From Verrucomicrobiota bacterium (GTDB taxonomy: Bacteria; Verrucomicrobiota; Verrucomicrobiia; Verrucomicrobiales; DEV007), in contig JAGWVU010000003.1 of the NCBI GenBank assembly GCA_018970725.1, positions 67,035 to 99,034 of the forward strand: DNA of 32,000 nucleotides. Reading direction: 5' to 3'. This document shows, in pieces, positions 2,735 through 25,311 of this stretch. The notes under the pieces were generated by a model. The model worked only from the letters and a program-made list of their open reading frames with translations. It did no database searches and was not told the origin of the DNA. Both the position numbers and the translations under genes were made by a program. Position 1 is the stretch's first letter; every line of letters starts with the position of its first letter.

Positions 2735-3391
2735 ATGAGCGATCCGATTGAAACCGCCACCCTGATCGATGCCCTGAATTGGCGCTATGCCACGAAGCGT
2801 TTTGACCCCGGCCGCCGGATCCCGGAGGAGACATGGCAGGCGCTGGAACAGTCCCTGGTCCTGACACCCTCTTCCTATGGGATGCAGCCGTGGGAGTTTC
2901 TTGTGGTGACCCGTCAGGAGCTCAAAGAGCAACTGGTTCCTCATTCCTGGGGACAACGTCAGGTTGCGGATTGCTCCCATCTTCTGGTCATCGCGGCGCG
3001 GCGGGCGCTGGGCGAGGGGGATGTGGATCGTCTGATGTCCGCCCTTGCCTCCATTCAAGGCCGTTCGCCGGAGCAGACCAAGGGGTATCGGGAAATGATC
3101 ATCCGGGATGTCGTCGAGGGACCCCGCTCCAGGGACGTGACCGGTTGGGCCCGGTTGCAATGTTACATCGCACTCGGTAGCTTTATGACGGCGTCCGCCT
3201 TGTTGGGGATCGACACCTGCCCCATGGAAGGGTTTCTCCCTGATCGATACGACGAGTTGCTTGGACTTGCGGAGCGGGGCTTGACCGCAGCGGTGGTTTG
3301 TCCGTCGGGATATCGCCATCCCGGAGATCCGAACGCCTCCCTGCCGAAGGTCCGGTTTCCTGTGGAGGAAATGGTGCGCCATCTTGCCTGA
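2735..3391 (+). CDS. NAD(P)H nitroreductase-family flavoprotein
   Basis: LNWRYATKRFDPGRRIPEETWQAL...PSSYGMQPWEFLVV...QCYIALGSFMTASALLGIDTCPMEGF is typical nitroreductase-fold sequence. Start chosen at MSDPIE (ATG 2735); ATG 2699 is also possible. Confidence 0.8.
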   Translation: MSDPIETATLIDALNWRYATKRFDPGRRIPEETWQALEQSLVLTPSSYGMQPWEFLVVTRQELKEQLVPHSWGQRQVADCSHLLVIAARRALGEGDVDRLMSALASIQGRSPEQTKGYREMIIRDVVEGPRSRDVTGWARLQCYIALGSFMTASALLGIDTCPMEGFLPDRYDELLGLAERGLTAAVVCPSGYRHPGDPNASLPKVRFPVEEMVRHLA

Positions 3392-5271: not shown

Positions 5272-5353
5272 GCCGGGTGGAAGGTGGGGGAGAGGCAATG
5301 AGTTTGCTTGCTTCGGGAGATGGCATCCGCTAAGAGGCCTGACGGACTTGGTC

Positions 5354-6691: not shown

Positions 6692-6698
6692 TCGCGTC

Positions 6699-8225: not shown

Positions 8226-8228
8226 AGG

Positions 8229-10802: not shown

Positions 10803-12194
10803 TCAGGGCTTGGGGGCGGACTGCCTTGAGCGGACGGTGAACGAGACGGGCATGCCGGTGAGGTCGAATTCCCGGCGCAATTCGTTTTCCAGATAACGCT
10901 CGAAAGTGCGGGTCACCAGTTCCGCGTAATTCACGAAGAGAATGAAACGTGGAGCTTGGACCGGGCGCGGATGATCCTCCTTTTTGGTCGTGACGTAGAG
11001 GAGGTTGAGGCGTCGGCTCTTCCGGATGGGAGGCGGGTTCCTCTCGATGGCGTCCTGGAGAAAACGGTTGAGGACTCCGGTGCCGATTGGTTGGCGGGCC
11101 GCGTCCAGGATTTTCTCGATGCCGCCGAAGATCTTGTTGAGGTGCTGGCCTTTCATGGCGGAGGTGGCCACGAAGGGGGCGTAGTGGAGAAAAAAGAGCT
11201 CCTTTTCGATCCCGGTGCGCAACCGCTCGAGACGTTCCGCCGACTTCAATTCGGGCTGGAAGAGGTCGAATTTGTTCACCACCACGATGCACGGCTTGTG
11301 CGCTTCCACGATTTGCTGGCCGATCGTGCGGTCCATCGCGGTGACGCCCCGCTCGGCATCGATCACCAGGAGGCAAAGATCCGCCCGACGGATGCTCTTC
11401 TCGCTGCGCATGACGCTGAACACCTCGACCGGGGAATCGCGGGACGTGCGGCGCCGGATTCCGGCGGTATCGATGAGGGTATAATGGCGTCCGCCACGTT
11501 CATAGGGGATGTCGATGGCATCGCGCGTGGTTCCGGCCACGTCGCTGACGATGGTGCGGTCATCCTCGAGAATGGCGTTGACGAGCGAGGACTTGCCCAC
11601 GTTGGGGCGCCCGACGATGGCAATGCGGATGCGAGCCGGTTCGGTGCCCGGCTCCTCCGTCTCCGGTCCATGGGTGGCGATGAGGTGATGGCCGATGCGA
11701 TCGATCAGTTCATCGAAGTTGCGGTCGTGCTCCGCGCTGATCGGGAGAGGATCGGAGAAACCGAGACGGTCGAAGTCATGGGCGAGATTTTCATGTTTCG
11801 TGGTATCGACCTTGTTGATGAGGAGGATCACGGTCGTGCCGCTCTTGCGGAGAACGGAAGCGAGTTGCTCATCCACCGTGGTCAACCCGTTTTGGGCGTC
11901 GGTCACGAAGAGGATCAAAGCGGCGGACTCGATAGCGATATCCGCTTCGAGCCGGACCTGGGCGGTGAATCCGTCCTGGAGGCGGGAACCGATGCCGCCG
12001 GTATCGATGAGTTCGAAGGAGCGTGGGCCGCGGGTGCAAAGGGCGGAGATCCGGTCCCGGGTCACACCGGGTTCATCGTGGACGATGGAGATGCGGCGGC
12101 CGACGAGGCGGTTGAAGATGGCGGACTTGCCGACGTTGGGACGCCCGACGATGGCGACGACGGGGCGTGGCGTGGAAGATGCGGAATCGGTCAT
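10803..12194 (-). CDS. der: Ribosome-associated GTPase Der (EngA), two GTPase domains plus KH-like domain
   Basis: Two G domains: IVGRPNVGKSAIFNRL...DTGG...NKVD and IVGRPNVGKSSLVNAI...DTAG...NKFD. Start at MTDSAS (ATG 12194) rather than the tracked 12263. Confidence 0.95.
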   Translation of the reverse strand: MTDSASSTPRPVVAIVGRPNVGKSAIFNRLVGRRISIVHDEPGVTRDRISALCTRGPRSFELIDTGGIGSRLQDGFTAQVRLEADIAIESAALILFVTDAQNGLTTVDEQLASVLRKSGTTVILLINKVDTTKHENLAHDFDRLGFSDPLPISAEHDRNFDELIDRIGHHLIATHGPETEEPGTEPARIRIAIVGRPNVGKSSLVNAILEDDRTIVSDVAGTTRDAIDIPYERGGRHYTLIDTAGIRRRTSRDSPVEVFSVMRSEKSIRRADLCLLVIDAERGVTAMDRTIGQQIVEAHKPCIVVVNKFDLFQPELKSAERLERLRTGIEKELFFLHYAPFVATSAMKGQHLNKIFGGIEKILDAARQPIGTGVLNRFLQDAIERNPPPIRKSRRLNLLYVTTKKEDHPRPVQAPRFILFVNYAELVTRTFERYLENELRREFDLTGMPVSFTVRSRQSAPKP

Positions 12195-12256
12195 GGAAGC
12201 GACGAGTGACGCTTGCAACCACCCGAGGGGCATCCAACGTAGCTCAAGGAACGCAT

Positions 12257-12730
12257 ATGGCAAACAAACCAGAAGTAGGAAGTCCGGCTCCCCAGTTCAC
12301 CGCCCCGGTTGTCGGAGGGGATTATCCGGAAGGCGCCACCCTGTCGTTGTCCGATCTGGCCGGGCAAACCGTGGTTCTGTATTTCTATCCCAAGGACAAC
12401 ACTCCGGGATGCACGACCCAGGCTTGCGACCTTCGGGACAACTGGGCTGCCGTCTCGGCCAAGGCCAGGGTTTTTGGGGTCAGCCCGGACGGGGTGAAGA
12501 GCCATCGCAAGTTCATCGACGGTCATTCCCTGCCGTTCCCCCTGATCGCGGATCCTGACAAGAAGATCGTCAATGATTACGGGGTCTGGATCGAGAAGAG
12601 CATGATGGGCCGTTTGGGGTTCGGCACGGAGCGGACCACCTTTGTGATCGGCCCGGACCAGAAAATCAAGGCGGTCTTCCCCAAGGTAAAGCCCAAGGAG
12701 CACGTCGCCCAACTGCTAGGGGTGATCTGA
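12257..12730 (+). CDS. bcp: Thiol peroxidase / peroxiredoxin Bcp
   Basis: GSPAPQFTA...VVLYFYPKDNTPGCTTQACDLRD is the canonical Bcp active-site context. Start at MANKPEV (ATG 12257). Confidence 0.9.
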   Translation: MANKPEVGSPAPQFTAPVVGGDYPEGATLSLSDLAGQTVVLYFYPKDNTPGCTTQACDLRDNWAAVSAKARVFGVSPDGVKSHRKFIDGHSLPFPLIADPDKKIVNDYGVWIEKSMMGRLGFGTERTTFVIGPDQKIKAVFPKVKPKEHVAQLLGVI

Positions 12731-12751
12731 GACTTCGCCCTCCTGTCGCGT

Positions 12752-14254
12752 TCAACCCATGGTTTCCCTGGCGGCGCGCCGGCCGGATTCCACGGCGCCG
12801 TTCATGAATCCGCAGAACGCTTCGCTGGTGTGCTCCCCCGCGAAGAGCAGGCGTCCCTCGCACTCCGGTCGGGCCGAAGCGGCGTTGATCCAGGTGTATT
12901 GGCCGGTGAGCGGGCAGCTGTAGCTCCCCTCGTGAGTGGGCACCTTGGGCCAGTTCATCACCGCGCTGTTGCCATCGTAAGCCGTTTTGGCGCCGGGGAA
13001 GACGGTATCGATGTCCGTCAGGTCCCGCTCATCCGCCCTGACTTGGAACTCGGTCGCGCGCCGTCCCCCGAGCAGGTTGGTCAGGATGCCGCCCGTTCCC
13101 TCCTGGCCACGGCTCGTTTCCCAGATATTCTGGAAGTTCGGCAGTTCGGCGAAGACCGAGCCGTTGGAACCTTGCTGGCGCCAGACGCGGCTGGAGAACC
13201 CTCGCATCACCTTGATGTTTTGTCCGTAACCCAACTCGCGGACCGCTCTGGCTTTCTCCTGGGAAACCGGCAGATCGAAGAATCCGGTGACCTTGCGGAG
13301 TTGGTTGAACGGCAGGGTGACGATGACCTTGTCGAACCCCCTTGCGGATTCCTCTCCGGCGAACGAGAGCTGGACACGATGGTCCTGAAGCACGATGCCG
13401 ATGAGTCGTTTGCCGGTATGGCAGGTCACCCGGTCCTTGAGTTGGTGGGTCAGGGTGTCCGGGAGCCGGCTGTTTCCTCCCATGATGCGCCATGCCTCAT
13501 CACTGTCCCCAAAGACGCTGTATCCGTCCCTTAGGTCGGTGTCGGTGAAATCGACGAGATTGAGGCAGGAGATGAGTGAGGCGCTCAGCCCGTATTCAGG
13601 CTCGTAGGCGGCCAGCAGGTAATCGGAGATCCAAGGTTCCACGCCGGGGATGCCGGCCAGATAACCGATCAGGGAAATTCGGTCGAGCTGGGCGGCATAC
13701 GGGGTGAAGCTCCCGTCGTCATGGTAGAGTTTGGCCACGTCCCCGGCGATCCGGGTGATCACAGGTTGCAAACCGGCAAGCCACTCCTCCTCGGACCGCG
13801 CCCTGTCCTCGAACCAGAGCCGGTCCTTTCCCGCCTCGCCCTCAACCAGGTGCTGAAGCTGCAGCCCGAGGTCCCGGGCGAGTTGGATGAGAGCGGTATG
13901 GTTGGTGTCGATCAACTCGCCGCCGAGTTCGACGAACATACCGTCGGAATTGAAGTTCCGTTTGGTGAACACCCTTCCGCCGAGCCGGGGGGAGGCTTCA
14001 AAAAGCTCAACGGTCGCCTCGCTCTGCCGCAGGTGCCAAGCCGCGGTGAGTCCGGCGAGACCGCCTCCGATGATGGCGACGGATCCCTTGAAGGGCTCGG
14101 TGGCCCGGCTCGGCGTGCTCAGGGCGGCGGCGGCTCCGGTGGAAGTCTGCAGGAATCGGCGCCGGGAAACACGACCGGACGGGACGGGTTCCCGGGAGAG
14201 GCCGATGCCGAGGAGCCGGCGCAAGTGACGGAAAACAGGGGTGCGGGCGGGCAT
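12752..14254 (-). CDS. Flavin-containing amine oxidase family protein with twin-arginine (Tat) leader
   Basis: SRRRFLQTSTGAAAAL is a Tat-like motif. Dinucleotide fold VAIIGGGLAGLTAAWHL...ELFEASPRLGGRV. C-terminal LLFAGEHTS...GAVESGRRAA is typical of the MAO/LAAO/polyamine oxidase family. It lies 18 nt downstream of the acyltransferase gene on the same strand. Confidence 0.8.
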   Translation of the reverse strand: MPARTPVFRHLRRLLGIGLSREPVPSGRVSRRRFLQTSTGAAAALSTPSRATEPFKGSVAIIGGGLAGLTAAWHLRQSEATVELFEASPRLGGRVFTKRNFNSDGMFVELGGELIDTNHTALIQLARDLGLQLQHLVEGEAGKDRLWFEDRARSEEEWLAGLQPVITRIAGDVAKLYHDDGSFTPYAAQLDRISLIGYLAGIPGVEPWISDYLLAAYEPEYGLSASLISCLNLVDFTDTDLRDGYSVFGDSDEAWRIMGGNSRLPDTLTHQLKDRVTCHTGKRLIGIVLQDHRVQLSFAGEESARGFDKVIVTLPFNQLRKVTGFFDLPVSQEKARAVRELGYGQNIKVMRGFSSRVWRQQGSNGSVFAELPNFQNIWETSRGQEGTGGILTNLLGGRRATEFQVRADERDLTDIDTVFPGAKTAYDGNSAVMNWPKVPTHEGSYSCPLTGQYTWINAASARPECEGRLLFAGEHTSEAFCGFMNGAVESGRRAARETMG

Positions 14255-14272
14255 GGAGGATTTGGCGCGGGT

Positions 14273-15511
14273 TCAGGCGGATTGCCCGGCTCGGGCGGGG
14301 CGCTTCCGCTTGCGCTTGCGATCAAAGGTAGCCTTCCAGCGTTGATGCATCCAGATCCACTGTTCCGGGTGACGCAGGAGCGCGGTTTCGAGTGCCTTGT
14401 TGAAAGCGGTGGCGGTCAGGCGGATGGCGTCCTCGGCCCGTTCATGATCGACTACCGGGACGGGCTCTTCGAAGCGCAGGACGTGGGTGCCATCCGGTTC
14501 GCGCCAACTCGTGGCCGGAATGACGGGGGCCCCGGTGGACATGGCGATGATCGGCAGGCTGCGGAACGTGTTGGCCGGGGTGCCGAGAAAATCGGCCGGG
14601 ACTCCATCGCGCTGCGTGGCGTGTTGGTCGTAAATGAAGACCACGATTTGGCCTCGGCCGAGAAGGTCGAGGATGGAGTCGAGGGACCCCCGGCTCGGAA
14701 TGGTCCCGAAGCCGGCTTGGTGGAAGCGCCAGGTGACGAAGCGGTTGAGGAACTCGGGATTGAGTGGCTTCCGCACGAAATGGAAAAGGCCCTTGAACTC
14801 GGTGAACTGGCGGATGCCATCCACCGTGGCCACCTCCCAGTTTCCGAAATGTCCGGTGAGGAGCAACATCCCCTTGCCTTGGGCCAAGGCGCGGGCGGCG
14901 ATCTCCATCCCTTCGATGCGGATGGATCGCTTCCGCAGGAAGAACTCGCCGAAACATCGGACAAAGTGACCGTAGTAGTCCTGCGCGAGGAGGGCGATCT
15001 CCTGCTCCGTGAGAACTTCGCCGAACGCGCGGCGCAAGTTGGTCAGGACCACGCCGCGCCGCAAAGGGAAGAGATGGTAAACCAGCTTGCCGAACCAAGG
15101 CGGGGTAAAAGCGCGTTTTTCCGCTACCGCCACGGCGGAAGCGGAGTTGGCGGTGTGGGTCAGGGAGAGGCGGATTGCGGTGATGAACGCGCGGTTCATG
15201 GCGGCGTGGGCCGCGGGACTGGCCTCAACATGGGGCGCACCGTAACCATCGGAACAAACCGAAAAGTCCGCGGGGCCGAGCTGCCCGAGCGCGGTTTCCT
15301 TGGGAAAGAGTTTGCAGCAGGCCTCCTTGGCGGCAAACCGGGCGGCCAAGCTGCCAACCCGGCCCGCGCCCTCCCCGGCGTCGGCGATTTCCCGGGCGCT
15401 GAACAGTTTGCCGAGATCCTCCGGAGGCGTGGCCCGAAGCAATTTCTCGAGGCGAGGGATCTCAACCGTATCGATCCCGCACCGCGTTCCTGGCGGAGGC
15501 TCGGGCGTCAT
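14273..15511 (-). CDS. Fusion protein: AcpS-type 4'-phosphopantetheinyl transferase (N-terminal) + LpxL/HtrB-family lipid A-type (lysophospholipid) acyltransferase (C-terminal)
   Basis: N-terminus CGIDTVEIPR...LAARFAAKEACCK...SLTHTANSASAVAVAE follows the AcpS pattern. The C-terminal domain has LLLTGHFGNWE (HxxxxE-type box of LpxL-like acyltransferases) and ...HPEQWIWMHQRWK. Start at MTPEPPP gives an ATGA overlap with the upstream KS stop (15508-15511). Confidence 0.8.
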   Translation of the reverse strand: MTPEPPPGTRCGIDTVEIPRLEKLLRATPPEDLGKLFSAREIADAGEGAGRVGSLAARFAAKEACCKLFPKETALGQLGPADFSVCSDGYGAPHVEASPAAHAAMNRAFITAIRLSLTHTANSASAVAVAEKRAFTPPWFGKLVYHLFPLRRGVVLTNLRRAFGEVLTEQEIALLAQDYYGHFVRCFGEFFLRKRSIRIEGMEIAARALAQGKGMLLLTGHFGNWEVATVDGIRQFTEFKGLFHFVRKPLNPEFLNRFVTWRFHQAGFGTIPSRGSLDSILDLLGRGQIVVFIYDQHATQRDGVPADFLGTPANTFRSLPIIAMSTGAPVIPATSWREPDGTHVLRFEEPVPVVDHERAEDAIRLTATAFNKALETALLRHPEQWIWMHQRWKATFDRKRKRKRPARAGQSA

Positions 15512-16794
15512 GAAGGGGTGTTCCGGCGGACCAGCAGGGCCACGTTCATGCCTCCGAAACCACGACAAATGATCAGGGCGATGTCGCTGCGCGGCCGCTG
15601 GTGATCGCAGGAAACGGGAAGCGTGGCGAAGGCGGGATCGACCTCCCGCAAGGTTGGAATTCCCGGGACCACGTCGCGCGCGAGACACTCGAGGACCAGA
15701 GCGGCATCCAGCGTTCCGGCGGCGGCGAGCGTATGGCCAATGGCCCATTTGAACGCGGTCACTGGTGGGACTTGATGGCCAAAGACCCGTAGAATCGCGG
15801 CGGCTTCCGAGGCGTCGGAATTCGGCGTTCCGTTTCCGTGGGCCACAATCATCCCCACTTCCTCCGGGGAAATCCCGGCATCCGCCAAGGCGAGGCGGAT
15901 GGCCCGGGTGGGGCCGTCACCATCTGGCTGCAATTGGACGATTCCGGAAGCTTCACTGACGGTTCCGGACCCGAGAAACTGGCCGAGGACCGGAGCCTGG
16001 CGGGCCAAGGCGGATTCCAACGGCTCCAAGGCAAGGGCGGCGGCCCCTTCGCCAAAGAGCGTGCCATCGCGACGGGCATCGAAGGGGCGCACGGCATCGC
16101 TGGAGAGGAGCCCGAGGCGATGATAACCGAGCACGGACTCCGGCTCGATCGGCGCGTCGTGTCCTATGGCGACGATCCGGTCCGCCTCACCGATCCGGAG
16201 GGACGCCGCCGCTTCCGCCACCGCGAGGGCTCCGCTGGCGCACTGGTTGGTGATGCAGGCATTGGTGCCCTTGAACTGGTTGCGGATGCCGACGTGGCAA
16301 AGAACGTTGTTCGGAAGAATGCGCAGCAGCCACATCGGATGCACCGAGGACGCGAGGTCGCGCCCGAAAGCGGTCATGTCCCCCTTGGACGAGTGCAGCA
16401 AGGGAAAGAAGTCATAGTTAACTTGATAGGATCCTCCGCCGGATCCGACGACCAGGCCGGAGCGGTCGTTGAACAGAGGAACCCCGGTTTCCGGCAGCGT
16501 GTCGCGCAAGGCCGGAAATCCGGCGGACCGGATGGCCTCGTCTCCGGCGTAGATTCCGAACAGGTCGGTTCGGGAAATTGACTTGTGGAGTTTGCGGTCG
16601 TCCACCAGGACCTGATCCTTGATCCCGTTGATCTGGGCGGCCACCCGCACGGGCCAATCTGAGGCGTCCCAGTAACCGATCGGTCCCACCGCGGAACGGC
16701 CCTCCAGAATGGCGTCGAGAATGGCCGCGGGACGGAGTCCGGCGCCGCAGACCGCGCCCGAACCGGTGATGGCAATGCGTGGGGAGGGGCTCAT
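15508..16794 (-). CDS. Beta-ketoacyl-ACP synthase family protein (second KS, divergent FabF/FabB-like)
   Basis: RIAITGSGAVCGAG; active-site Cys in ITNQCASGALAV; His motifs VAHGNGTPNSD and KWAIGHTLAAAG; C-terminal RGFGGMNVALLV. Confidence 0.85.
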   Translation of the reverse strand: MSPSPRIAITGSGAVCGAGLRPAAILDAILEGRSAVGPIGYWDASDWPVRVAAQINGIKDQVLVDDRKLHKSISRTDLFGIYAGDEAIRSAGFPALRDTLPETGVPLFNDRSGLVVGSGGGSYQVNYDFFPLLHSSKGDMTAFGRDLASSVHPMWLLRILPNNVLCHVGIRNQFKGTNACITNQCASGALAVAEAAASLRIGEADRIVAIGHDAPIEPESVLGYHRLGLLSSDAVRPFDARRDGTLFGEGAAALALEPLESALARQAPVLGQFLGSGTVSEASGIVQLQPDGDGPTRAIRLALADAGISPEEVGMIVAHGNGTPNSDASEAAAILRVFGHQVPPVTAFKWAIGHTLAAAGTLDAALVLECLARDVVPGIPTLREVDPAFATLPVSCDHQRPRSDIALIICRGFGGMNVALLVRRNTPS

Positions 16795-16807
16795 CGGGTC
16801 GTTCCAA

Positions 16808-18094
16808 TCAGGGTTGGCGGAAGGTGAGGCAGCTGTTGGATCCGCCGAAGCCGAGGGAATTGGAAAGGGCCGCCCGGATCCGGAGTCGATGGGATGTGCC
16901 GGTCACCATGTTGAGCGATTCGTTCCCCGGGTCCGGCGTCTTGAAGTTGGCGCTCACCGGAGCGATGCCGTCGCGGATGGCCAGTGCGCAGACGGCCGCT
17001 TCCACCGCGCCGGCGGCCGCGATGAGGTGACCCATGCAGCCCTTGGTGGAGCTGACCGATACCTCCGGCAGGCGTTCACCCAGCACCACCTTGAGGGCGG
17101 CGCACTCGCTCTGGTCGTTCATCTGGGTCGAGGTCCCGTGGGCGTTGACGTAATCAATGTCTTCCGGTCCCAAGCCCGCGCTGGCCAAGGACTGACGGAT
17201 CGCCTGGATCGGACCGTCGCCGTCTGGCGGTGAATCGGTGATCCGGTAGCAACTCAGCGAATTCCCGTCCCCGGCCAGTTCCGCATAAATCTCCGCGCCG
17301 CGGGCGAGGGCATCCTCCCAGCGCTCCAATACGAGAAAGCCCGCGCCTTCACCGAGGACGAAACCGTTCCGGGTCACGTCGAAGGGGCGGCTGGCCCGCC
17401 AAGGTTCGTCGTTGTCGGTGGACAAGGCGCCGAGAAGGCAGAAGCTGGACAGTCCGATCGGGTTGAGCATCGAATCGAAGCCACCGACCAGCATTCGGTC
17501 GACGAGACCGCGTCGCATGACCTTCAGGGCGGTCCCGATCGCCTGCCCGCCGGAGGCGCAGGCCGTGTGAACGGCGGAACTGTAACCGCGAATGCCGAAG
17601 TGATGGGCGAGCAGGGCCAGCCCGGCATTGCATTGGGTGCGGCAGAAGTAAACGGGATCCACAGGGTATTCCGAAGCCGCCATTCTGGTGGCGTCGAAAG
17701 ATCCCTCCGGCGCACAATATTGACGGACCACGTCCAGTTCCTCAACGGAGATGCTCATCATGCCGGCCCCCACGGAGAGTCCCCAACGGTGGGCGGTGGC
17801 CGGATCGGGGCGGATCCCGGCGTCTGAGAGCGCTTCCCCGGCGGCGGCCAGGGCGAAACGGTGGCAACGGGACGCTTGTTTGAGCAGTTTCCGGGGGGCC
17901 ATCCCCTCAAAGTCGAACCCCTTCACCTCGGCACCGATGCGCGTCGTGAAACCACTGGCATCGAAGGTCGTGATCGGGCCGGGGCCGGGCCGTCCTTCGA
18001 GGAGCGAACTCCAGGTCGATTCCCGATCATTCCCCACCGGGGTCACCAAGCCAATTCCGGTGATCGCGATCCGCATCCTTGGATTGTTGCTCAT
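16808..18094 (-). CDS. Beta-ketoacyl-ACP synthase II-like (FabF-like KS)
   Basis: MRIAITGIGLVTPVGN; Cys in VHTACASGGQAIG; NAHGTSTQMND; STKGCMGHLIAAAG; SLGFGGSNSCLTF. The start overlaps the dehydratase stop by 4 nt. Confidence 0.9.
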   Translation of the reverse strand: MSNNPRMRIAITGIGLVTPVGNDRESTWSSLLEGRPGPGPITTFDASGFTTRIGAEVKGFDFEGMAPRKLLKQASRCHRFALAAAGEALSDAGIRPDPATAHRWGLSVGAGMMSISVEELDVVRQYCAPEGSFDATRMAASEYPVDPVYFCRTQCNAGLALLAHHFGIRGYSSAVHTACASGGQAIGTALKVMRRGLVDRMLVGGFDSMLNPIGLSSFCLLGALSTDNDEPWRASRPFDVTRNGFVLGEGAGFLVLERWEDALARGAEIYAELAGDGNSLSCYRITDSPPDGDGPIQAIRQSLASAGLGPEDIDYVNAHGTSTQMNDQSECAALKVVLGERLPEVSVSSTKGCMGHLIAAAGAVEAAVCALAIRDGIAPVSANFKTPDPGNESLNMVTGTSHRLRIRAALSNSLGFGGSNSCLTFRQP

Positions 18095-18927
18095 TTCCCT
18101 GTAATTGCGGCCAATTCCACCCGCGCCGCGCCTTGGAGGCGGCCTCCCGCCTTGGTCTGCACGGAAACCAGCAACGCGGCAGCGGAATGTTCGAGGACTT
18201 TCGCTTCCAAATCAAGCCCGCTCCCCGGCGGGATGAAGGCACGGAGTTTCATGTCGCACACCGCCCGGGCCGCCCATCGGCCTGTCTCCGGGGGGATCGA
18301 TCCGGCGAGGGCATCGACCAGTTTCAGGTTCATGTTCATCAACAAGGTGCCCGGAAAGACCGGGCGGCGCGGAAAATGATCTTCGAAGAAAGGCGCCTCG
18401 CCGGGAACCTGCAGTCTGGCCCGGGCGATGCCGCCGGTCTCCACCACGAGTTCCTCCAACGCGAATTCAGGGACGCCACGAAACGCTCCCGGTTCCGCAC
18501 CGGCTCCACACAGGACGGCAAGGCGCTCGCGCATCGCCGCCGGATCATCGAATTCCCCTGCGGGCATCATGGGGCCGACGCAATGGTGGAGGCGGAGAAC
18601 CGGGATCCCATCGACCGAGGCCAAACCACCATAAGCCACCGCCTCCGCATCCGCGGTTTCCAGTTCCGCGGAAAGCTCCAGCGTCTGTCCCGGGGCCGCA
18701 TCCCCGAGAAGTTCCACCCTTCCGGCGATCCCTGCGACGGGGCGATGGGAGAAGTCGATGGCGGCCATGGCGGACCAAGCCGCCAGCTGGCCCGTGGCCT
18801 CCGCCACCAGAGAGAGGGGAAACCGGGGAAGACCGGGCGGGATTTGCCAGGAACCGGCCACACGCACACCCGGTTCCAGAAGGGAGATGCGGTCGACGAA
18901 GGAGAAAGCGCGGTAACGATGATGCAT
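18091..18927 (-). CDS. Didomain (tandem hot-dog) FabA/FabZ-like 3-hydroxyacyl-ACP dehydratase
   Basis: The C-terminal half has the FabZ-like motif PFFEDHFPRRPVFPGTLL. The N-terminal half has FSFVDRI...PLSLVAEATGQLAAW (hot-dog helix motif without the His). The ATG shares 1 nt with the ACP stop. Confidence 0.7.
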   Translation of the reverse strand: MHHRYRAFSFVDRISLLEPGVRVAGSWQIPPGLPRFPLSLVAEATGQLAAWSAMAAIDFSHRPVAGIAGRVELLGDAAPGQTLELSAELETADAEAVAYGGLASVDGIPVLRLHHCVGPMMPAGEFDDPAAMRERLAVLCGAGAEPGAFRGVPEFALEELVVETGGIARARLQVPGEAPFFEDHFPRRPVFPGTLLMNMNLKLVDALAGSIPPETGRWAARAVCDMKLRAFIPPGSGLDLEAKVLEHSAAALLVSVQTKAGGRLQGAARVELAAITGK

Positions 18928-19352
18928 CAGGCGCCGCGGGCCGCGTGTTGTTCGCGGATGATCATCTTGGCGAAGGTTTCCACCGTGAACAGCTTGGGGA
19001 TCTCGGCCGAGCGGATCGGGGTTTTGAGGCGATCCGCTGGAACTTCACTGAGGAATTCACGGAGACGTTGCTCGCCCTCGGGAGTCACTACGCCGCCTTT
19101 CTCAAACTCGGCCTCGGCCAACGGGCCGCGGGCGTCCTCCACGATTTTGCCGCGCGGGATCTTGACCTTGAACTCGCGTTCCAAGCGGAAAACGATATCG
19201 AGGAAATCGATGGATTCGCCTCCCAGGTCGTTGATCAGAGAGGAGGTGGGTTGAACGTCGTCCGGTTCGCACCCAAGCGCGTCGGCGATGATTTCGGCGA
19301 CCTTTGGCAGGATCGCCTCGATTTCTTCCTTGGTGATGTTCTCGTTGCTCAT
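18927..19352 (-). CDS. Acyl carrier protein with ~55-aa C-terminal extension (141 aa)
   Basis: LINDLGGESIDFLDIVFRLEREF is the phosphopantetheine attachment context (DSxD-like with Ser), roughly aa 40-62. The extra C-terminal region has no motif I recognise. Confidence 0.8.
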   Translation of the reverse strand: MSNENITKEEIEAILPKVAEIIADALGCEPDDVQPTSSLINDLGGESIDFLDIVFRLEREFKVKIPRGKIVEDARGPLAEAEFEKGGVVTPEGEQRLREFLSEVPADRLKTPIRSAEIPKLFTVETFAKMIIREQHAARGA

Positions 19353-19370
19353 ATCAATCAGAATCAGTCT

Positions 19371-20135
19371 TCAGTCCATTTTGAAGCCCCCGTCCACCGG
19401 GAGGATCTGGCCGGTGATGTAGTCGGCGTATCGGGAAGCCAGAAACCAGACGGCATGGGCGATCTGCTCCGGCTTGCCATAGCGCTTCAGCAGGATGCGC
19501 GCCTTGATCTGGTCCCCCGCGAGGTCCCGGACGGTCTGGGACATCTCGGTCTCGATCACGCCCGGGGCCACCGCGTTGACGCGCACGTTGCGGGCCGCCA
19601 CTTCACAGGCGAGGGACCGGGTGAACGCGTCGATCGCGCCCTTGCTGGCGGCGTAGTTGGTTTGGCCGCGCCCTCCCTTCGCACCGGAGACGGAGCTGAG
19701 ATTGATGATGCTGCCCCGGCGTTTGGACATCATGAAAGGAACCACCGCTCGGCACATGTTGAACGTGCCCTCCACGTTGGTCCGCAGAACCTCGCGGATT
19801 TCCTCATCGCTCAAGGCGACGAGCAGGTTGTCCCGGACGACTCCGGCGTTGTTGACGAGGACATCGACCCTCCCGGTCCGGTCGGCGATCGATTCCACAA
19901 AGGTCTGGCAGGCTGCCGGATCCCGGACATCGACCTGACAGGCCGTGATCCTGCCCTCCGGTCCGGATGCGGAGACCTCCCGGGCCGCGGCGGCGTTCTC
20001 CCGCCAGGTGAAGGCGACCTCCATTCCGGCGGCCGCCAAAGTTTCCACGATGGCACGACCGATGCCCCGGCTGCCGCCGGTGACGATGGCCACTCCGCCG
20101 GCCAAGCCTGAATCCGAGAGACTGGGGGCGTTCAT
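19371..20135 (-). CDS. 3-oxoacyl-ACP reductase-like classical SDR (FabG-like KR)
   Basis: VAIVTGGSRGIGRAI, NNAG, and the catalytic S...YxxxK (NLSSVSG...YAASKGA). Start taken at MNAPSL (ATG 20135), 1 nt after the upstream stop. The alternative ATG 20162 would overlap by 26 nt. Confidence 0.85.
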   Translation of the reverse strand: MNAPSLSDSGLAGGVAIVTGGSRGIGRAIVETLAAAGMEVAFTWRENAAAAREVSASGPEGRITACQVDVRDPAACQTFVESIADRTGRVDVLVNNAGVVRDNLLVALSDEEIREVLRTNVEGTFNMCRAVVPFMMSKRRGSIINLSSVSGAKGGRGQTNYAASKGAIDAFTRSLACEVAARNVRVNAVAPGVIETEMSQTVRDLAGDQIKARILLKRYGKPEQIAHAVWFLASRYADYITGQILPVDGGFKMD

Positions 20136-20136
20136 T

Positions 20137-20892
20137 TTATCCTGAAATGCAGTAACCTCCATCGACGACGAGGGTATGTCCGGTGATCAGTGCGGCCTCC
20201 GGCAGGCACAAGAGATAGAGGGCGTCGGCCACGTGTTCCGGCGTCAGCGGCGTCGGGATCGGCGTGCGCTGGGCGGACTCCGCGAGCAGGTTCTCCCGGT
20301 TCGGGAAATGTTTCAGGGCGTCGGTATCGACCACGCCAGCGCTCACGATGTTCACCCGGATGCCCCGGGGGCCGAGTTCCTGGGCCAAAGCGCGGGCCAG
20401 TGATTCCAACGCCGCCTTCGAGGCGCCGATGAAGGAATAATGAGGGATGGCGCGGACCGAGCCCATGCTGGAGAGTCCGATGAAGACGCCACCCTGAGGC
20501 ATGATCGGGACGGCCTGTTGGGCGAGGGTATTCAACGCGAGGGCGTTCGTTTCCATGCAGCGACGCCAGTGCTTCAGCGTCATCTCGAGGGCCGGGCGGA
20601 GCACTCCGATGGCCGCGTTGCTGACCACGATGTCCACTTGGTCGAACTGCTTGCGGAATTCGCCGAAAGCCTCGGCGAGGCTCGAGGGATCGCTCACATC
20701 CGCCTGCAACGCGATCGCGCGGCGTCCCAGGTCGCGGATTGCCTGACACACCTCCTCCGCCTCCTGATGACTGTTGAAGTAGACGATGGCCACGTCACAA
20801 CCCGCCCGGGCCAGCTTGAGGGCGCTGGCCCGTCCGATGCCGCGAGCACCGCCGGTGATGAAAGCTGTCTTGCCTGCAAGCGTTTCGCTCAT
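20137..20892 (-). CDS. Enoyl-ACP reductase-like SDR (FabL-like)
   Basis: Extended by-eye similarity to Bacillus FabL: NAAIGVLRPALEMTLKHW...NALAL...LSSMGSVRAIPHYSFIGASKAALESLARALAQEL...VNIVSAGVVDTDALKHFPNRENLL. Confidence 0.75.
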   Translation of the reverse strand: MSETLAGKTAFITGGARGIGRASALKLARAGCDVAIVYFNSHQEAEEVCQAIRDLGRRAIALQADVSDPSSLAEAFGEFRKQFDQVDIVVSNAAIGVLRPALEMTLKHWRRCMETNALALNTLAQQAVPIMPQGGVFIGLSSMGSVRAIPHYSFIGASKAALESLARALAQELGPRGIRVNIVSAGVVDTDALKHFPNRENLLAESAQRTPIPTPLTPEHVADALYLLCLPEAALITGHTLVVDGGYCISG

Positions 20893-21010
20893 TGCCTGAA
20901 AAAGGAAATCAGATAGGAGCCTTGATCAGGGAGTTCGTCAAGGGATGGCCGGAATCAGGAACCGATTCTGCGCTTGATCGCGGTCCGATCCTCCGGCAGA
21001 AAGTGACCTC

Positions 21011-22261
21011 ATGGACACCCGGAACAGCCGACGGCACTTTCTCTCCCTCGCGACCACCGCTTTGGGCGGAGGCATCCTCAGGGCCGGGGAGGGGGCCTCG
21101 TTTCCTCCCCGGCGCGCGATCACCCGGGGACCATCCCACCACTGGTTCGGGTATTACGACAAGCTGCAGTTCGATCCTTCCGACCGTTTTGTTCTCGGCA
21201 TGCGGGTCGGATTCGAGCATCGCTCACCGCTTCCGGACGACACCATCGAGGTCGGAATGGTCGACCTCGAGGAGGGCGACCGCTGGGTTCCCCTGGGGTC
21301 GACCAAGGCGTGGAACTGGCAGCAGGGCTGCATGTTGCAGTGGATTCCCGGGACCCGATCCAAGGTGATTTGGAATGATCGGGAGAAGGATCGCTTCGTC
21401 TGCCATCTGCTCGACGTGCAAACCGGCGAGAAACAGACCCTGCCTCACCCCGTTTATGCGTTGAGCCCGGACGGGAGGGAAGCGGTCACCTGTGATTTCT
21501 CACGGGTCGCCGACTGCCGCCCCGGGTATGGTTACGCCGGAATCCCGGACCGGTTTTCGCATGTCATGGCCCCGGCGGAGACCGGCATCAGCCGGGTCAA
21601 CCTTGAGACCGGCGCGGCCAGGTTGATCCTCTCCCACCGCAAACTGGCGGAAACCGGGGTGGTTCCTGAGAATCATCCGACCTCGAAGCACCACGCCTAC
21701 CACCTGTTGGTGGGGCCGGACGGCAGGCGCTTCATCCTTCTGCACCGTTGGACCCAGCCCAATGGCGGGCATCTCACCCGGCTCATCACGGCCAATCTGG
21801 ATGGATCCGATCTGCGCATCGTAATCCCGAATGGCTACGCCTCCCACTTCATCTGGCGGGACGCCAGCCATATCCTCTCCCAAGCCAGGGGATGGCTCGG
21901 TCATCAGAACTGGGGAAACTTTCTTTTCGAGGATAAGGATTCCGGGGTCATCGCCGAAATCGGACGCGGCGTGCTCGATTCGGGCGGCCATTTCACCTAC
22001 CTCCACCAAAACGAGTGGATCTTGAACGATACTTACCCACAGGGCGTCCGCCGATTGGCGACGCCGCATCTCTACCACATCGCCGGGAACCGGAGGATCG
22101 ATCTGGCGCAGTTTCCCCAACCGGCCGAATATACCGGCGAGTGGCGGGTCGATTGCCACCCGCGTCTCAGCCGGAAGGAACGCTGGGTCTGCGTCGATGC
22201 GCCCCACCAAGGCACGGGGCGTCAGCTGCACCTGATCGATCTCGAAGGGATCTTCGGGTGA
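21011..22261 (+). CDS. Tat-signal beta-propeller protein (TolB/PD40-like repeats), function unknown
   Basis: MDTRNSRRHFLSLATTALGGG is a twin-arginine motif. Repeated SPDG/GPDG blade signatures. C-terminal RVDCHPRLSRKERWVCVDAPHQGTGRQLHLIDL resembles terminal TolB-like blades. Confidence 0.55.
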   Translation: MDTRNSRRHFLSLATTALGGGILRAGEGASFPPRRAITRGPSHHWFGYYDKLQFDPSDRFVLGMRVGFEHRSPLPDDTIEVGMVDLEEGDRWVPLGSTKAWNWQQGCMLQWIPGTRSKVIWNDREKDRFVCHLLDVQTGEKQTLPHPVYALSPDGREAVTCDFSRVADCRPGYGYAGIPDRFSHVMAPAETGISRVNLETGAARLILSHRKLAETGVVPENHPTSKHHAYHLLVGPDGRRFILLHRWTQPNGGHLTRLITANLDGSDLRIVIPNGYASHFIWRDASHILSQARGWLGHQNWGNFLFEDKDSGVIAEIGRGVLDSGGHFTYLHQNEWILNDTYPQGVRRLATPHLYHIAGNRRIDLAQFPQPAEYTGEWRVDCHPRLSRKERWVCVDAPHQGTGRQLHLIDLEGIFG

Positions 22262-22263
22262 AT

Positions 22264-23592
22264 TCAGCTCGCGTCCGAGACTGATGAAAGGTGGAAGGCG
22301 TCGACCACCAGCGGCGGCACGTGGGCGGGCCCGTCGCTCTCGCTCCCGAGCACCCGCTCGGGAATGCCGGACGCGAGGATCTGCCGGAGGACATTGGCGG
22401 GGGACTCGTTGAACCGGAAATTTTTCACCGGTCCGGCGAGTTCGCCGTTGCGGATGGCAAAGGTTCCGTCACGGGTCAGGCCGGTGTAGAGGAGGGATTC
22501 CGGCCGGACCATGCGGAGATACCAGAGCCGGGTGATGAGCACGCCGTCCTTGACCTGGGCGATGAGTTTCTCCATGGATTGGCCTTCCCCGGGGATGAAG
22601 AAGTTGCCTGGCATGGGCTTGGACTCCAGACCCTTGGCCTTGGCCCAGTAGCGGCCGGTGACGAGGTTGCGGAGGATCCCGTTTTCGATCCACGCCGTCG
22701 GCCCGAGAGGCTCCCCGCCAGCATGGGTGAGACAGGGGGCCGGGCGGAAAAGCGGATCCGAGCGCAGGTTGGCGGTTCCGAAGAGTTGTTGGCCGATGGG
22801 ATCCCTCCCGTCCTTGGCGAGCGCATTGAGAAAGCTGCGGCCCTCGTCGAAATCCCGTCGCTCCAGGCTCCACAACAACAGGGAAACAAGATCCCTCACC
22901 GCGGCAGGCTCGAGGAGAACCATGACCCGTCCCGGCGGATGCTCGGCGGGATGGCGCGACGCCAACGCCTTGCGGATCGCGCGCTCTCCGACGGGGCCGA
23001 GGTCGAGATCGGAGGAGTCGGTGACCTGGGTGCTGGCCCAGCCGGAGCCGCCGTCCCGGGTGCGGGCGGTCATGGAGAAACCGACGGACGTTTGCCGCTG
23101 GGCCACGAAGAGCCCCTTGCTGTTGGCCAAGGCGTGGGAAGCCACGGTCTTCTGGAGGTAACCGGCGCTCTCGAGGCCGGCGGCCCGGGCCGCCTCGATC
23201 ACGGGGCGGACCCAACGCAGGGCGTCGTCAGGTCCCGAGACCGCGGTCTTTTCCGAGAAGGCGAGCGGTTCGGCGAAGGTGGCGGGGGCGACCGGAGGCA
23301 TGTGCTCGGGATTTTCCGGGGCCAGTCTGGCCATGGCCTGCACCTTGGAAACCGCCTCGCGCAGGCTTTCCGGATCCGTCTCTTGGAACGAAATCGAGGC
23401 GGAACGGCGGCCGTAACTCACGCTCAGACCGATCTGACGCCGGGAGGTCAGGGAGTTCGACGTGATGTCGTTGTTCGCGTGCCGGAGATGAAGATCGGTG
23501 CTGTCGTCGATCGACACCACGGCTTCATCGGCCTCGACGAGATCGAGGATCCGGGCGGAGAGGGATTGGAGGTCGGCGTGGTTCAAGTCCAT
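22264..23592 (-). CDS. PmbA/TldE-family metallopeptidase subunit (no signal peptide)
   Basis: Length and overall pattern fit the PmbA_TldD fold (..VSIDDSTDLHLRHANNDIT.., ..GVLITRLWYLRMV.., C-terminal ..PPLVVDAFHLSS). It sits 6 nt downstream of the TldD-like gene. Start at MDLNHADL (ATG 23592). Confidence 0.8.
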   Translation of the reverse strand: MDLNHADLQSLSARILDLVEADEAVVSIDDSTDLHLRHANNDITSNSLTSRRQIGLSVSYGRRSASISFQETDPESLREAVSKVQAMARLAPENPEHMPPVAPATFAEPLAFSEKTAVSGPDDALRWVRPVIEAARAAGLESAGYLQKTVASHALANSKGLFVAQRQTSVGFSMTARTRDGGSGWASTQVTDSSDLDLGPVGERAIRKALASRHPAEHPPGRVMVLLEPAAVRDLVSLLLWSLERRDFDEGRSFLNALAKDGRDPIGQQLFGTANLRSDPLFRPAPCLTHAGGEPLGPTAWIENGILRNLVTGRYWAKAKGLESKPMPGNFFIPGEGQSMEKLIAQVKDGVLITRLWYLRMVRPESLLYTGLTRDGTFAIRNGELAGPVKNFRFNESPANVLRQILASGIPERVLGSESDGPAHVPPLVVDAFHLSSVSDAS

Positions 23593-25220
23593 GCGGTGCG
23601 GGTTCCTCCACAGCCACATTCGCGGGGGTGGGACGGGTGAAAAGCCGTCTTCGCTCCGGATTCGTTGGCCGTGTTCAGGATGTTGATGTTGCGGAAACGG
23701 GCCGGGACCGCCCCGTGACTGACGGCGGCGATCTGCCCGGGCTGCCCCTTGCCGCAGTTGAAGGCACCGCCCAGTTCATAACTCGGCTCGCCGCCGATCC
23801 CGTCACAGGCGTTCCAGAAATCGACCGAATTCCCTTGGTAGGCCACATCGCGCAGCATCCCGTCCAGTTTCCCGTGGCGGATGCGGTGGAAGATCTGGCC
23901 GGTGAACTGGAAGTTGTAACGCTGCTGATCGATGCTCCAGCTTCCGTTGCCTTCAATGTAAATGCCGTCCTCGACCCCCGAGATGAGGGAGGCGGCGTTC
24001 GCGGCAGGGTCCGGTCCGGGTTGGAGGGAGATGTTCGGCATCCGCTGGATGGGGAACGAGGCGAAGCCGTCGGCGTAGGCGCAGCCGTTGGAGGCCTCGC
24101 GTCCGATCAGCGCGGCCTGTCCCAGCGCCATCTGGAAATTGCGGAAAACGCCTTCCTGGATGATGGGGAACTCCTTGCCCCCGGTGGCGGTGCCGTCGTC
24201 ATCCCAGGCCACCGTGGCCAAACCACCGGGAGCGGTGCGGTCTCCGACGATGGTGACCCATTGGCTGCCGTAGCGGAGTTTGTCGAGCTTGTCTGGCGTG
24301 CAGAAGGAGGTTCCCGCGAAGTTCGCCTCGTAACCGAGCGCACGATCGAGTTCCGTAGGATGTCCCACGGTTTCATGGATCGTGAGCCACAGATTGCTGG
24401 GGGCGATCACGAGATCCAGTTTCCCTGATTTGACGGAAGGGGCCGCCATTTTTTCGCGCGCCTGCTCCACGGCGAGGGCGGACTCCGTGGCCCCATCCCA
24501 GCGCCGCACGTGCTCGTACCCGGCCGCCCGGGGCGGGAGGAGGCTCTGCCGGGTGGAGAAGTCGCCCTTCTTCGCGTCGAGCACGGTGACGTCGAAGGCG
24601 GGCTGAAGCCGCACCCGCGATTGTTGGACCCGGGTGCCGAAGGAAGTGGCAAGCCACTTGCGTTCACGGACCTGCAACAAATGGGCGTGGCAGAAGTTCG
24701 CGCCCTTGTCCAGGGCGGCGCGGGTGATGCGCAAGAGGTCGCCCGTTTTCTCTTCCAGCGACACGGTGAAGGGATCGATTTCGAGGGGCATCTCCCAAGA
24801 ACCGGTGTGCGGGGGGAGGGACTCGATCTCGATGCGGCGCAGGCGCCAGCCGGCTTGCGCTCGCGCCAGCGCCACGGCTTGCTCCGTGAGGCGGATGACC
24901 TCCGCTCCGGTCACGTCGGCACTGGCCGCGAAACCCCAACACCCGTCCACGAGAACCCGGACCGAGAGACCAGCCGTGGAAGAAGCATCGATCCCCTGCA
25001 CCATGGATTCGCGGACGAAGATCGATTCTTCATCGGTCTGCATCAGGTGAACCGCAGCGAAGGAAGCGCCGCGAACCTTGGCGTGCTCGAGCGCGGCATC
25101 GGCCAGGGTGGGGAAGAGGCGGGAAAGCCGCGCCGCCCGTTCCTCGGCGATGGCCCATCGGCTGGTGAGGAGGGCGAGACCGGCGGCACTGGTGCCGCGG
25201 AGCCAATCGCGTCGATTCAT
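23583..25220 (-). CDS. TldD-family metalloprotease with twin-arginine leader
   Basis: MNRRDWLRGTSAAGLALLTSRWAIA looks like a Tat leader. Metal-binding motif IHETVGHPTELDR (HExxxH). C-terminal ..GGAFNCGKGQPGQ.. is typical of TldD. Confidence 0.85.
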   Translation of the reverse strand: MNRRDWLRGTSAAGLALLTSRWAIAEERAARLSRLFPTLADAALEHAKVRGASFAAVHLMQTDEESIFVRESMVQGIDASSTAGLSVRVLVDGCWGFAASADVTGAEVIRLTEQAVALARAQAGWRLRRIEIESLPPHTGSWEMPLEIDPFTVSLEEKTGDLLRITRAALDKGANFCHAHLLQVRERKWLATSFGTRVQQSRVRLQPAFDVTVLDAKKGDFSTRQSLLPPRAAGYEHVRRWDGATESALAVEQAREKMAAPSVKSGKLDLVIAPSNLWLTIHETVGHPTELDRALGYEANFAGTSFCTPDKLDKLRYGSQWVTIVGDRTAPGGLATVAWDDDGTATGGKEFPIIQEGVFRNFQMALGQAALIGREASNGCAYADGFASFPIQRMPNISLQPGPDPAANAASLISGVEDGIYIEGNGSWSIDQQRYNFQFTGQIFHRIRHGKLDGMLRDVAYQGNSVDFWNACDGIGGEPSYELGGAFNCGKGQPGQIAAVSHGAVPARFRNINILNTANESGAKTAFHPSHPRECGCGGTRTAWT

Positions 25221-25311
25221 GAGGAGAGCGTAGGGGAGGGAACGGGGAATGTCGAATCCGGAGTGAGCGCGGGCCTTGCGGATCGCGCGAATCGCTCCCA
25301 ACTTGCTGCAG

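Follow-up and report, generated by a model that had tools for sequence, protein, structure and literature searches.

A self-contained fatty-acyl elongation module ending in a fused lipid A-family acyltransferase in Verrucomicrobiota and Burkholderiales

Seven co-directional genes (g1–g7) of a Verrucomicrobiota bacterium encode the parts of a type II fatty-acyl elongation pathway together with an acyltransferase of the family that acylates lipid A. They lie on contig JAGWVU010000003.1 (assembly GCA_018970725.1), of which a stretch of 32,000 nucleotides (nt), positions 67,035–99,034, was analyzed as a whole and is called the window here. We have high confidence that the genes specify a dedicated acyl-lipid pathway. 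Our preferred reading is an orthogonal elongation system with its own delivery enzyme, for which a lipid A precursor would be the most likely acceptor; we give this reading, taken as a whole, an even chance of being correct. The original prediction for this DNA described a near-autonomous elongation set joined to a lipid A-type acyltransferase, a description that agrees with the domain content, and all seven of its gene calls were recovered with Pfam and NCBIfam models.

Gene organization

The seven genes fill positions 20892→14273 of the window exactly, all on the minus strand, with junctions of −4 to +18 nt (listing of open reading frames, ORFs, and inspection of start codons). Starts were set at the start codons abutting the preceding stop, and the ORF listing shows g2 and g7 in longer form, with upstream extensions; g2 begins at an ATG 1 nt past the stop of g1 and is preceded by AGGA. 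In the order of transcription, the region and its genes, with the lengths of their products in amino acids (aa), are:

20893–21010, no strand: divergent intergenic region, presumed promoter region upstream of g1
20137–20892, minus strand: g1, predicted FabL-type enoyl-acyl carrier protein (ACP) reductase, 251 aa; first gene
19371–20135, minus strand: g2, predicted FabG-type 3-ketoacyl-ACP reductase, 254 aa; 1-nt gap after g1
18927–19352, minus strand: g3, predicted specialized ACP, 141 aa; 18-nt gap after g2
18091–18927, minus strand: g4, predicted fused double-hotdog 3-hydroxyacyl-ACP dehydratase, 278 aa; 1-nt overlap with g3
16808–18094, minus strand: g5, predicted FabF-like beta-ketoacyl-ACP synthase (ketosynthase 1, KS1), 428 aa; 4-nt ATGA overlap with g4
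15508–16794, minus strand: g6, predicted divergent ketosynthase (KS2), 428 aa; 13-nt gap after g5
14273–15511, minus strand: g7, fusion of an AcpS domain (aa ~10–132) and an LpxL/LpxM/PatA-family acyltransferase domain (aa ~135–395), 412 aa; 4-nt ATGA overlap with g6

The block is one operon. Base composition is uniform along it, and just one non-coding gap of more than 18 nt adjoins it, at 20893–21010, beyond which the neighbor (21011–22261) lies on the opposite strand. A scan for promoters and terminators found no sigma-70 consensus in 20893–21010 or within the block, and within the block one weak internal terminator-like site and nothing convincing; scans of the window detected no Rfam families and no tRNAs.

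Protein families and catalytic motifs

The first two genes encode the reductases. The product of g1, a short-chain dehydrogenase/reductase (SDR), is a predicted FabL-type enoyl-ACP reductase: it scores 316.1 bits against the NCBIfam FabL model NF005975 (covering 3–247 of 250), under the cut-off of 328, with the next family at 191, and its best PDB match is Bacillus subtilis FabL (3oic, 202 bits; runner-up 145). It bears the Tyr-x6-Lys spacing of enoyl reductases (PHYSFIGASK), and its orthologues are named enoyl-ACP reductase III or FabL by IMG and NCBI. The product of g2 scores 272 bits against TIGR01830 and 248 bits against the FabG subfamily model NF009466, above the cut-off of 222; it has the YxxxK motif and is 46% identical to Escherichia coli FabG (blastp, 196 bits) and 37% identical to ApeQ (147 bits) of the aryl-polyene (Ape) cluster.

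The carrier protein g3 contains a PP-binding domain (Pfam) with the pantetheine serine, Ser47, in the motif GGESIDFLDI. Its blastp scores are 55 bits for AcpXL (46% identity over 56 aa), 44 for AcpP, and 37 for ApeF, and its top PDB match is Rhodopseudomonas palustris AcpXL (2kw2), with a small margin over AcpP. A DFLDIVF...KIP block and an insertion after helix II are found in common with AcpXL in the alignment, and g3 carries a further, highly conserved insertion of ~36 residues. Seven helices are present in the AF2 model of g3 (pLDDT 86), for which AcpXL gives the largest structural coverage (TMq 0.53). Against the NCBIfam model for rhizobial-type ACPs, PRK06508, g3 reaches 47.5 bits vs. 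a cut-off of 83, and against the AcpP model TIGR00517, 42 bits vs. a cut-off of 70. The likeness to AcpXL appears specific, yet it holds at the level of the family only.

In the dehydratase g4, FabA/FabZ models match the C-terminal hotdog, whose identity to rhizobial FabZXL is 31% (blastp, 47 bits). Across 62 orthologues, His184 of this domain, in a DHFP motif, is conserved in at least 95%, and the position of the FabZ glutamate is Asn or variable; in the N-terminal hotdog the histidine is lost and Glu43, in LVAEAxGQ, is kept, again in at least 95%. In the simplest view the protein is a pseudo-dimer made by fusion, and it has one composite, FabZ-like active site, for which the C-domain would supply the His and the N-domain the Glu.

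Both ketosynthases have the N- and C-terminal ketoacyl-synt domains (Pfam). KS1 scores 417 bits against the fabF model TIGR03150, under its equivalog cut-off of 494, and 399 bits against the subfamily model NF005589, above the cut-off of 387; by blastp it is nearest to FabF (253 bits), followed by FabF1XL (231), ApeR (174), and ApeO (141). The Cys, His, Lys, His, and gating Phe are present in 68/68 orthologues. KS2 is more divergent, with 246 bits against the fabF model, FabF enzymes as best PDB matches, and blastp scores of 137 bits for FabF1XL, 117 for FabF, 115 for ApeR, and 36 for FabF2XL; here the Cys is found in 66 of 70 orthologues and the His, Lys, His, and Phe in all 70. Judged by these motifs, which include full Cys-His-His triads, both enzymes are probably catalytically intact. 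KS2 has Gly at the position of FabF Ile108, a pocket position at which we presume, and give little weight to, a link between residue and chain length, so that a deeper acyl pocket is suggested; at the Thr270 position it has Val or Leu.

The last gene joins a phosphopantetheinyl transferase (PPTase) to an acyltransferase. Pfam recognizes both ACPS (PF01648, 34.8 bits; cut-off 25) and Lip_A_acyltrans (PF03279, 115 bits; cut-off 22.3) in g7, and the AcpS model TIGR00556 gives 48.4 against a cut-off of 45.35. In 39 sequences spanning two phyla, no variation is seen at the residues D14 (GxD14), K62, and E63 or in the motifs AAKEACCK and HFGNWE (HX4E), and the C-terminal 270 aa display the PF03279 family fold with the HX4E and the C-terminal PEQWxWxHRRWK motifs. 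The AF2 model (pLDDT 84.7) was compared with known structures in Foldseek: the N-terminal part matches AcpS structures (TMt ~0.8), and the acyltransferase part has Acinetobacter baumannii LpxM (5kn7, E 1e-14) as top match, followed by PatA. Comparison of families in hhalign gave 98.6% for LpxXL (E 6e-16), 98.1% for LpxL (E 1e-13), and 0.2% for E. coli ApeD; in blastp the transferase domain scores 70.5 bits with LpxXL (27% identity) and 61 with LpxL and has no significant match to ApeD. Identity to characterized PF03279 members is only 22–27%, and the resemblance to LpxXL is best taken as one of family only. Automated pipelines label the parts of the module FabL, ACP, and "Kdo2-lipid IVA lauroyltransferase."

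The block encodes no FabD, FabH, or thioesterase. Because FabD and FabH are missing, malonyl loading and priming would have to come from elsewhere, as the original prediction had assumed in proposing that both are borrowed from the housekeeping fatty-acid synthase (FAS).

Conservation and distribution

Gene order was counted in 79 loci pooled from genomes, metagenomes, and contigs, each reaching 6.3 kb or more upstream of the transferase. The complete order g1-g2-g3-g4-g5-g6-g7 on one strand is kept in 63 of these loci; six, all from Chthoniobacterales, have g4–g7 alone, and in two the dehydratase alone is absent. This recurrence is far beyond chance. Conservation of the cluster in related genomes had been put forward as a check in the original prediction, and the count bears it out.

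Relatives of the fused g7 protein number in the thousands, of which the best 120 are all fusions with at least 59% identity, and the g3 carrier family has nearly 8000 database matches. In a scan with one genome per species, 370 genomes carry relatives; the best 80 of the 370 are all Verrucomicrobiota by contig content and belong to Chthoniobacterales, Limisphaerales, Verrucomicrobiales, and Akkermansiaceae. Across orders, g1 is 66–96% and KS1 66–87% identical.

A second large clade carrying the module is Burkholderiales, which was unexpected; the module is thus not peculiar to Verrucomicrobiota. In the isolate Zwartia panacis all seven genes recur in unchanged order (identities for g1–g7 of 66, 66, 55, 44, 63, 57, and 49%), and the module is also found, with unrelated flanks, in metagenome-assembled genomes (MAGs) of freshwater Alcaligenaceae and Burkholderiaceae, as well as in a high-GC soil group of Burkholderiales that includes a Casimicrobiaceae MAG. 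As the order is kept across loci and phyla, the seven genes form a unit that is self-contained, mobile, and strongly conserved.

Some record titles look wrong: contigs of verrucomicrobial content (L004, L015, L019, L022, L027, L033, L034, L038, and L040) are titled "Akkermansia muciniphila" or "uncultured Bifidobacterium."

Comparison with known systems

The rhizobial acpXL-fabZXL-fabF2XL-fabF1XL-adhA2XL-lpxXL cluster, which places a 27-OH-C28 very-long-chain fatty acid on lipid A, is the closest parallel in layout. Reference regions for this and the following comparisons were the acpXL-lpxXL cluster of Sinorhizobium meliloti (L085), the E. coli K-12 lpxL gene and fab cluster, and the Ape cluster of E. 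coli CFT073 (L083). In both the rhizobial cluster and the module, a dedicated ACP is followed on one strand by a dehydratase, two genes of the ketosynthase family, and a PF03279 acyltransferase, and g3, g7, and the C-domain of g4 are nearest to AcpXL, LpxXL, and FabZXL among the references tested. The match in core order claimed by the original prediction is sound at the level of protein classes, with AcpXL as the nearest reference for g3; that the two clusters are orthologous is not supported. Rhizobial FabF2XL lacks the Cys, His, and Lys (Glu, Ser, and Gly instead), whereas KS2 keeps Cys-His-Lys-His; FabZXL is a single hotdog and g4 a 278-residue fused didomain; AcpXL has 95 aa and g3 141; and the order of the ketosynthases is reversed, with the FabF-like KS1 first in the module. 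Beyond the rhizobial set, the module encodes an enoyl reductase, a ketoreductase, and a PPTase of its own, the last fused to the transferase; no homologue of the Zn alcohol dehydrogenase AdhA2XL was found in the window block or in related loci. All curated NCBIfam cut-offs of the rhizobial-type models are missed by the module proteins. Membership of the rhizobial AcpXL/LpxXL system was rejected on account of the intact KS2, the didomain dehydratase, the lack of an alcohol dehydrogenase, and the missed cut-offs. By these comparisons, the module is probably a functional analogue of AcpXL/LpxXL, assembled independently and more completely, and not its orthologue.

The S. meliloti reference record (CP090106.1, 3.7 Mb) is titled "plasmid pSymB" yet carries the chromosomal acpXL-lpxXL cluster.

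Mycobacterial FAS-II, made up of AcpM, KasA/KasB, MabA, HadAB/BC, and InhA with Pks13 as end enzyme, offers a parallel in general design. It too is a complete type II system for elongation only, taking its primers from another system, with two active ketosynthase genes beside the ACP gene, a dedicated ketoreductase and enoyl reductase, and a dehydratase built from one catalytic and one non-catalytic hotdog. AcpM is likewise extended relative to AcpP, its structure (1klp) aligning to residues 12–101 of g3. In sequence, however, the two systems show no particular affinity: for both ketosynthases the KasA/KasB model ranks below FabF, the enoyl reductase of the module is of the FabL and not the InhA/FabI type, the dehydratase halves are fused, and the end enzyme is an LpxL-family transferase rather than Pks13.

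Two further readings have to be weighed against this evidence. The first treats it as a pigment cluster of the aryl-polyene, flexirubin, or xanthomonadin type, that is, one resembling a type II polyketide synthase (PKS). It draws on antiSMASH surveys that call uncharacterized "arylpolyene" and "ladderane" clusters, which may include modules of the g1–g7 type, in Verrucomicrobia such as Ca. Udaeobacter (PMC7343977), and on precomputed Pfam tags that give "ApeI-like" (PF22818) for the dehydratase of relatives (L001, L091–L095, and the P0059 contig). That tag is not reproduced by direct hmmscan with current Pfam: the dehydratases of the window, L001, and L091 (Zwartia) have no match to ApeI-like (PF22818) or ApeP-like (PF22817) at E ≤ 1, whereas E. 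coli ApeI and ApeP, run as controls in the same library, score 124 and 141 bits, and g4 has no blastp match to ApeP. Like the Ape cluster, the module is type II and ACP-dependent, with ketosynthases, a ketoreductase, hotdog dehydratases, and an acyltransferase anchoring the product to a lipid, but every Ape-defining component tested is absent or unrelated. The g7 transferase is unrelated to ApeD (0.2% in hhalign); both ketosynthases keep the active-site Cys, so that there is no chain-length factor; ketosynthases, ketoreductase, and ACP score higher against FAS than against Ape proteins; and the FabL-type enoyl reductase, a component foreign to the Ape cluster, is incompatible with a polyene. 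Flanks were clustered for 82 loci, and among the 20 most recurrent families, the only ones read, LolA, MMPL, acyl-ACP synthetase, thioesterase, and GT2 are absent, with no direct search made for these or for ammonia-lyase. An aryl-polyene affinity had been named in the original prediction as the finding that would speak against its lipid reading, together with accompanying LolA-like and MMPL genes; the proteins show no such affinity. On protein-by-protein comparison with the CFT073 cluster, the module does not belong to the aryl-polyene system, and a pigment pathway of any of the three kinds was rejected as most improbable.

The second reading, that the block is the organism's housekeeping FAS with its genes in an uncommon order, would fit the very strong conservation of g1 and KS1 across orders and the passing of the FabF subfamily cut-off by KS1. 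Against it, the block has no FabD, FabH, or PlsX, its 141-aa ACP falls well short of the AcpP model, and g1–g3 or g4 are absent at the locus in some lineages. The PPTase fused to the transferase, being private to the module, argues for orthogonality. The module also occurs in Burkholderiales, which possess the canonical plsX-fabHDG-acpP-fabF set, and Verrucomicrobia carry a separate fused lpxC-fabZ (PMC3087551). Because of this distribution, the separate lpxC-fabZ, and the lack of FabD and FabH, the module is taken as accessory; the housekeeping reading was rejected on gene content and distribution and is, in our estimate, very improbable.

A second type II PKS-like set was observed in one Verrucomicrobiae MAG (L039), where it converges on the module at 11311–14032 on the minus strand and comprises a 109-aa ACP, a KS-like protein, and a 413-aa ketosynthase. 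It is possibly an aryl-polyene-type cluster; an assignment of its ketosynthase to a canonical acpP-fabF pair was rejected, the set being another PKS-like one rather than housekeeping FAS.

Acceptor of the acyl chain

For lipid A as the acceptor, considered by itself, we put the chances at about half. Indirect support comes from three other lineages, in which lpxB, or waaA together with lpxB, adjoins a related module:

L097, 198–4862: lpxB, KS, KS, and a stand-alone acyltransferase
L108, 96–7391: lpxB, then on the same strand enoyl reductase, ketoreductase, ACP, KS, KS, and AcpS::acyltransferase; no dehydratase
L113, 42–10792: waaA and tandem copies of lpxB, a divergent ArnT/PMT-like gene, then enoyl reductase, ketoreductase, ACP, KS, KS, and acyltransferase; no dehydratase and no AcpS fusion

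In L097 and L098 these genes form an overlapping operon just past dnaB, in which the ketosynthases are 50% (KS1-like) and 38% (KS2-like) identical to those of the window and the acyltransferase is 41% identical to the g7 domain; LpxB scores 242 there vs. an equivalog cut-off of 190. A more distant homologue with tandem LPLAT domains (~31–33% identical to the transferase domain of g7) lies within a lipopolysaccharide (LPS)-core cluster with two GT9 heptosyltransferases (L087).

Another such homologue, with tandem PF03279 domains, was seen on a low-GC metagenome contig (L086, 890–5087), where the housekeeping genes yceD-rpmF-fabD-fabG-acpP are followed by a second ACP of 78 aa and a 585-aa protein with two such domains.

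Several points weigh against lipid A. There is no lipid A gene in the 32-kb window. A screen of the Verrucomicrobiota loci L003–L082, which among lipid A genes covered just lpxB, waaA, and an ArnT-like gene, found none of the three; linkage to lpxB, though real, is confined to 3 lineages among ~165 loci. The transferase domain is as close in sequence to PatA (43.4 bits) as to LpxM (43.1 bits), and membership of PF03279 therefore cannot name the acceptor by itself. Although g7 has the C-terminal fold, the HX4E, and the PEQWxWxHRRWK motif of LpxL, LpxM, and PatA, it misses every curated NCBIfam LpxL/LpxXL cut-off (PRK06553, 91.6 vs. 273) and lacks the N-terminal membrane anchor of LpxL, that end being occupied by AcpS; no transmembrane anchor between the two domains was evident when the sequence was read by eye, and the private ACP presumably serves as donor. 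Analogy alone suggests a long or unusual chain, through the enlarged AcpXL-like ACP, the HadAB-like single-site double hotdog, and the Gly at the Ile108 position of KS2. Among verrucomicrobial lipid A structures, the literature search yielded one that is fully solved, that of A. muciniphila; its secondary chains are ordinary i14:0 and C17:0 (PMC11436972), in a strain that may lack the module. Lastly, a condensation-domain enzyme upstream of the module in about half of the judgeable loci suggests an additional or alternative acyl acceptor.

This enzyme is part of a co-directional trio found directly upstream of g1 in ~30 of 61 judgeable loci, in both Verrucomicrobiota and Burkholderiales (among them L009, L010, L021, L022, L033, L035, L036, L040, L041, L043, L049, L051, L103, L121, L123, L127, L128, L175, and L178). 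Its members are:

a stand-alone condensation-domain protein with an invariant HxxxD
a lipoprotein of 350–380 aa with an invariant lipobox Cys and GHSQGG, of no detectable family and sometimes duplicated
a membrane methyltransferase of the ICMT/PEMT family

A PDB profile search with the 382-aa accessory lipoprotein returned only noise, and Pfam and NCBIfam returned nothing. The methyltransferase has a weak match (E 2e-4) to the NCBIfam model of LmtA, an ICMT-family protein that acts as the lipid A 1-phosphate methyltransferase of Leptospira; this likeness is a lead towards lipid A remodeling and not evidence for it. The window lacks the trio, and its seven genes must therefore be able to function on their own.

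These observations bear on the alternative in which the same acyl-ACP factory serves an acceptor other than lipid A, such as a lysophospholipid, a glycolipid of the kind on which PatA acts, or an ornithine or other amino-lipid. In the lineages with the trio, an amine or alcohol acceptor could be converted to an N- or O-acyl lipid, which could then be methylated and trimmed. The equal scores of PatA and LpxM, the lack of LPS genes near most loci, and the presence of the trio in both phyla would all fit; yet apart from the trio, only lpxB and waaA are repeatedly fused into or abut orthologous modules, the distant tandem-domain homologue lies in an LPS-core cluster, and the window has no trio. 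We regard a non-lipid-A acceptor as unlikely, while taking it seriously.

Genomic surroundings

One further gene follows the operon on the same strand:

12752–14254, minus strand: g8, flavin amine oxidase with a twin-arginine translocation (TAT) signal (Pfam Amino_oxidase and TAT signal); 18 nt downstream of g7

It is apparently co-transcribed with g7. Since g8 is placed after g7 in the closest relatives only (L001–L004, 69–74% identity) and is absent from all other modules, it is not counted as part of the conserved module and is a lineage-specific passenger.

Beyond g8 lies a convergent peroxiredoxin gene. On the other side of the operon, the divergent gene at 21011–22261 (plus strand) encodes a 416-aa protein whose N-terminus, RRHFLSLATTALGGG, is TAT-like and which matches no family in Pfam or NCBIfam; it is 81% identical in the nearest relative, L001, and is not a recurrent neighbor elsewhere. 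Long antisense ORFs of 388–627 aa at 13721–15604, 18079–19254, and 18945–20111 (plus strand) are without family support and are the usual artefact of coding DNA with 65% GC. Farther out, at 5144–10784 and 22264–25301, the window contains genes unrelated to the module (a DUF900 alpha/beta hydrolase, a sulfatase, an 851-aa beta-propeller and phosphoesterase protein, and a PmbA/TldD pair), and the minus-strand ORFs 2570–3478 and 3163–5154 have no family.

Discussion

We propose the following course for the pathway. The AcpS domain of g7 would bring g3, the atypical carrier of 141 aa, into the holo state, and KS1 and KS2 would condense malonyl units on it, with malonyl loading and the primer borrowed from housekeeping FAS. 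The 3-keto group would be reduced by g2, the 3-hydroxyacyl intermediate dehydrated by g4, and the enoyl group reduced by g1, giving a saturated acyl-g3 from which the LpxL/LpxM-family domain of g7 would pass the chain to a membrane acceptor. The likeliest acceptor would be a lipid A precursor, with or without 3-deoxy-D-manno-octulosonate (Kdo), receiving a secondary chain at the cytoplasmic face of the inner membrane. The two ketosynthases may divide the labor, one taking the primer from housekeeping acyl-ACP and the other extending it, or they may cover two ranges of chain length as KasA and KasB do. The system is probably orthogonal to AcpP-dependent FAS, which would explain why it brings its own ketoreductase, enoyl reductase, and dehydratase, unlike the rhizobial one.

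No description of the module was found in the searchable literature. Features new to description are the 141-aa carrier with its predicted seven helices, the PPTase fused to a transferase that would consume acyl-ACP, and the putative single-site double-hotdog dehydratase with its domains in reversed order. Together they suggest, tentatively, a second and independently assembled pathway in which a private FAS and a late acyltransferase place an unusual, for example very long, chain on lipid A or another outer-membrane lipid.

AcpXL/LpxXL-type systems make the outer membrane stiffer and influence both tolerance of stress and recognition by the immune system, and dedicated carrier-acyltransferase systems have so far been known mainly from Alphaproteobacteria and a few pathogens. 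The module described here is carried by hundreds of verrucomicrobial species-level genomes and by abundant freshwater and soil Burkholderiales. Knowledge of its product might explain a recurrent gene cluster, one that may lie behind the "arylpolyene" or "ladderane" calls of antiSMASH surveys in this phylum, and the module would supply an orthogonal toolkit of ACP, PPTase, and FAS enzymes for engineering. The identity of the product would fill a gap in the envelope lipid chemistry of Verrucomicrobiota, which are globally abundant and mostly uncultured, and if the proposed pathway is correct, it would represent a major unrecognized modification of envelope lipids in widespread environmental bacteria.

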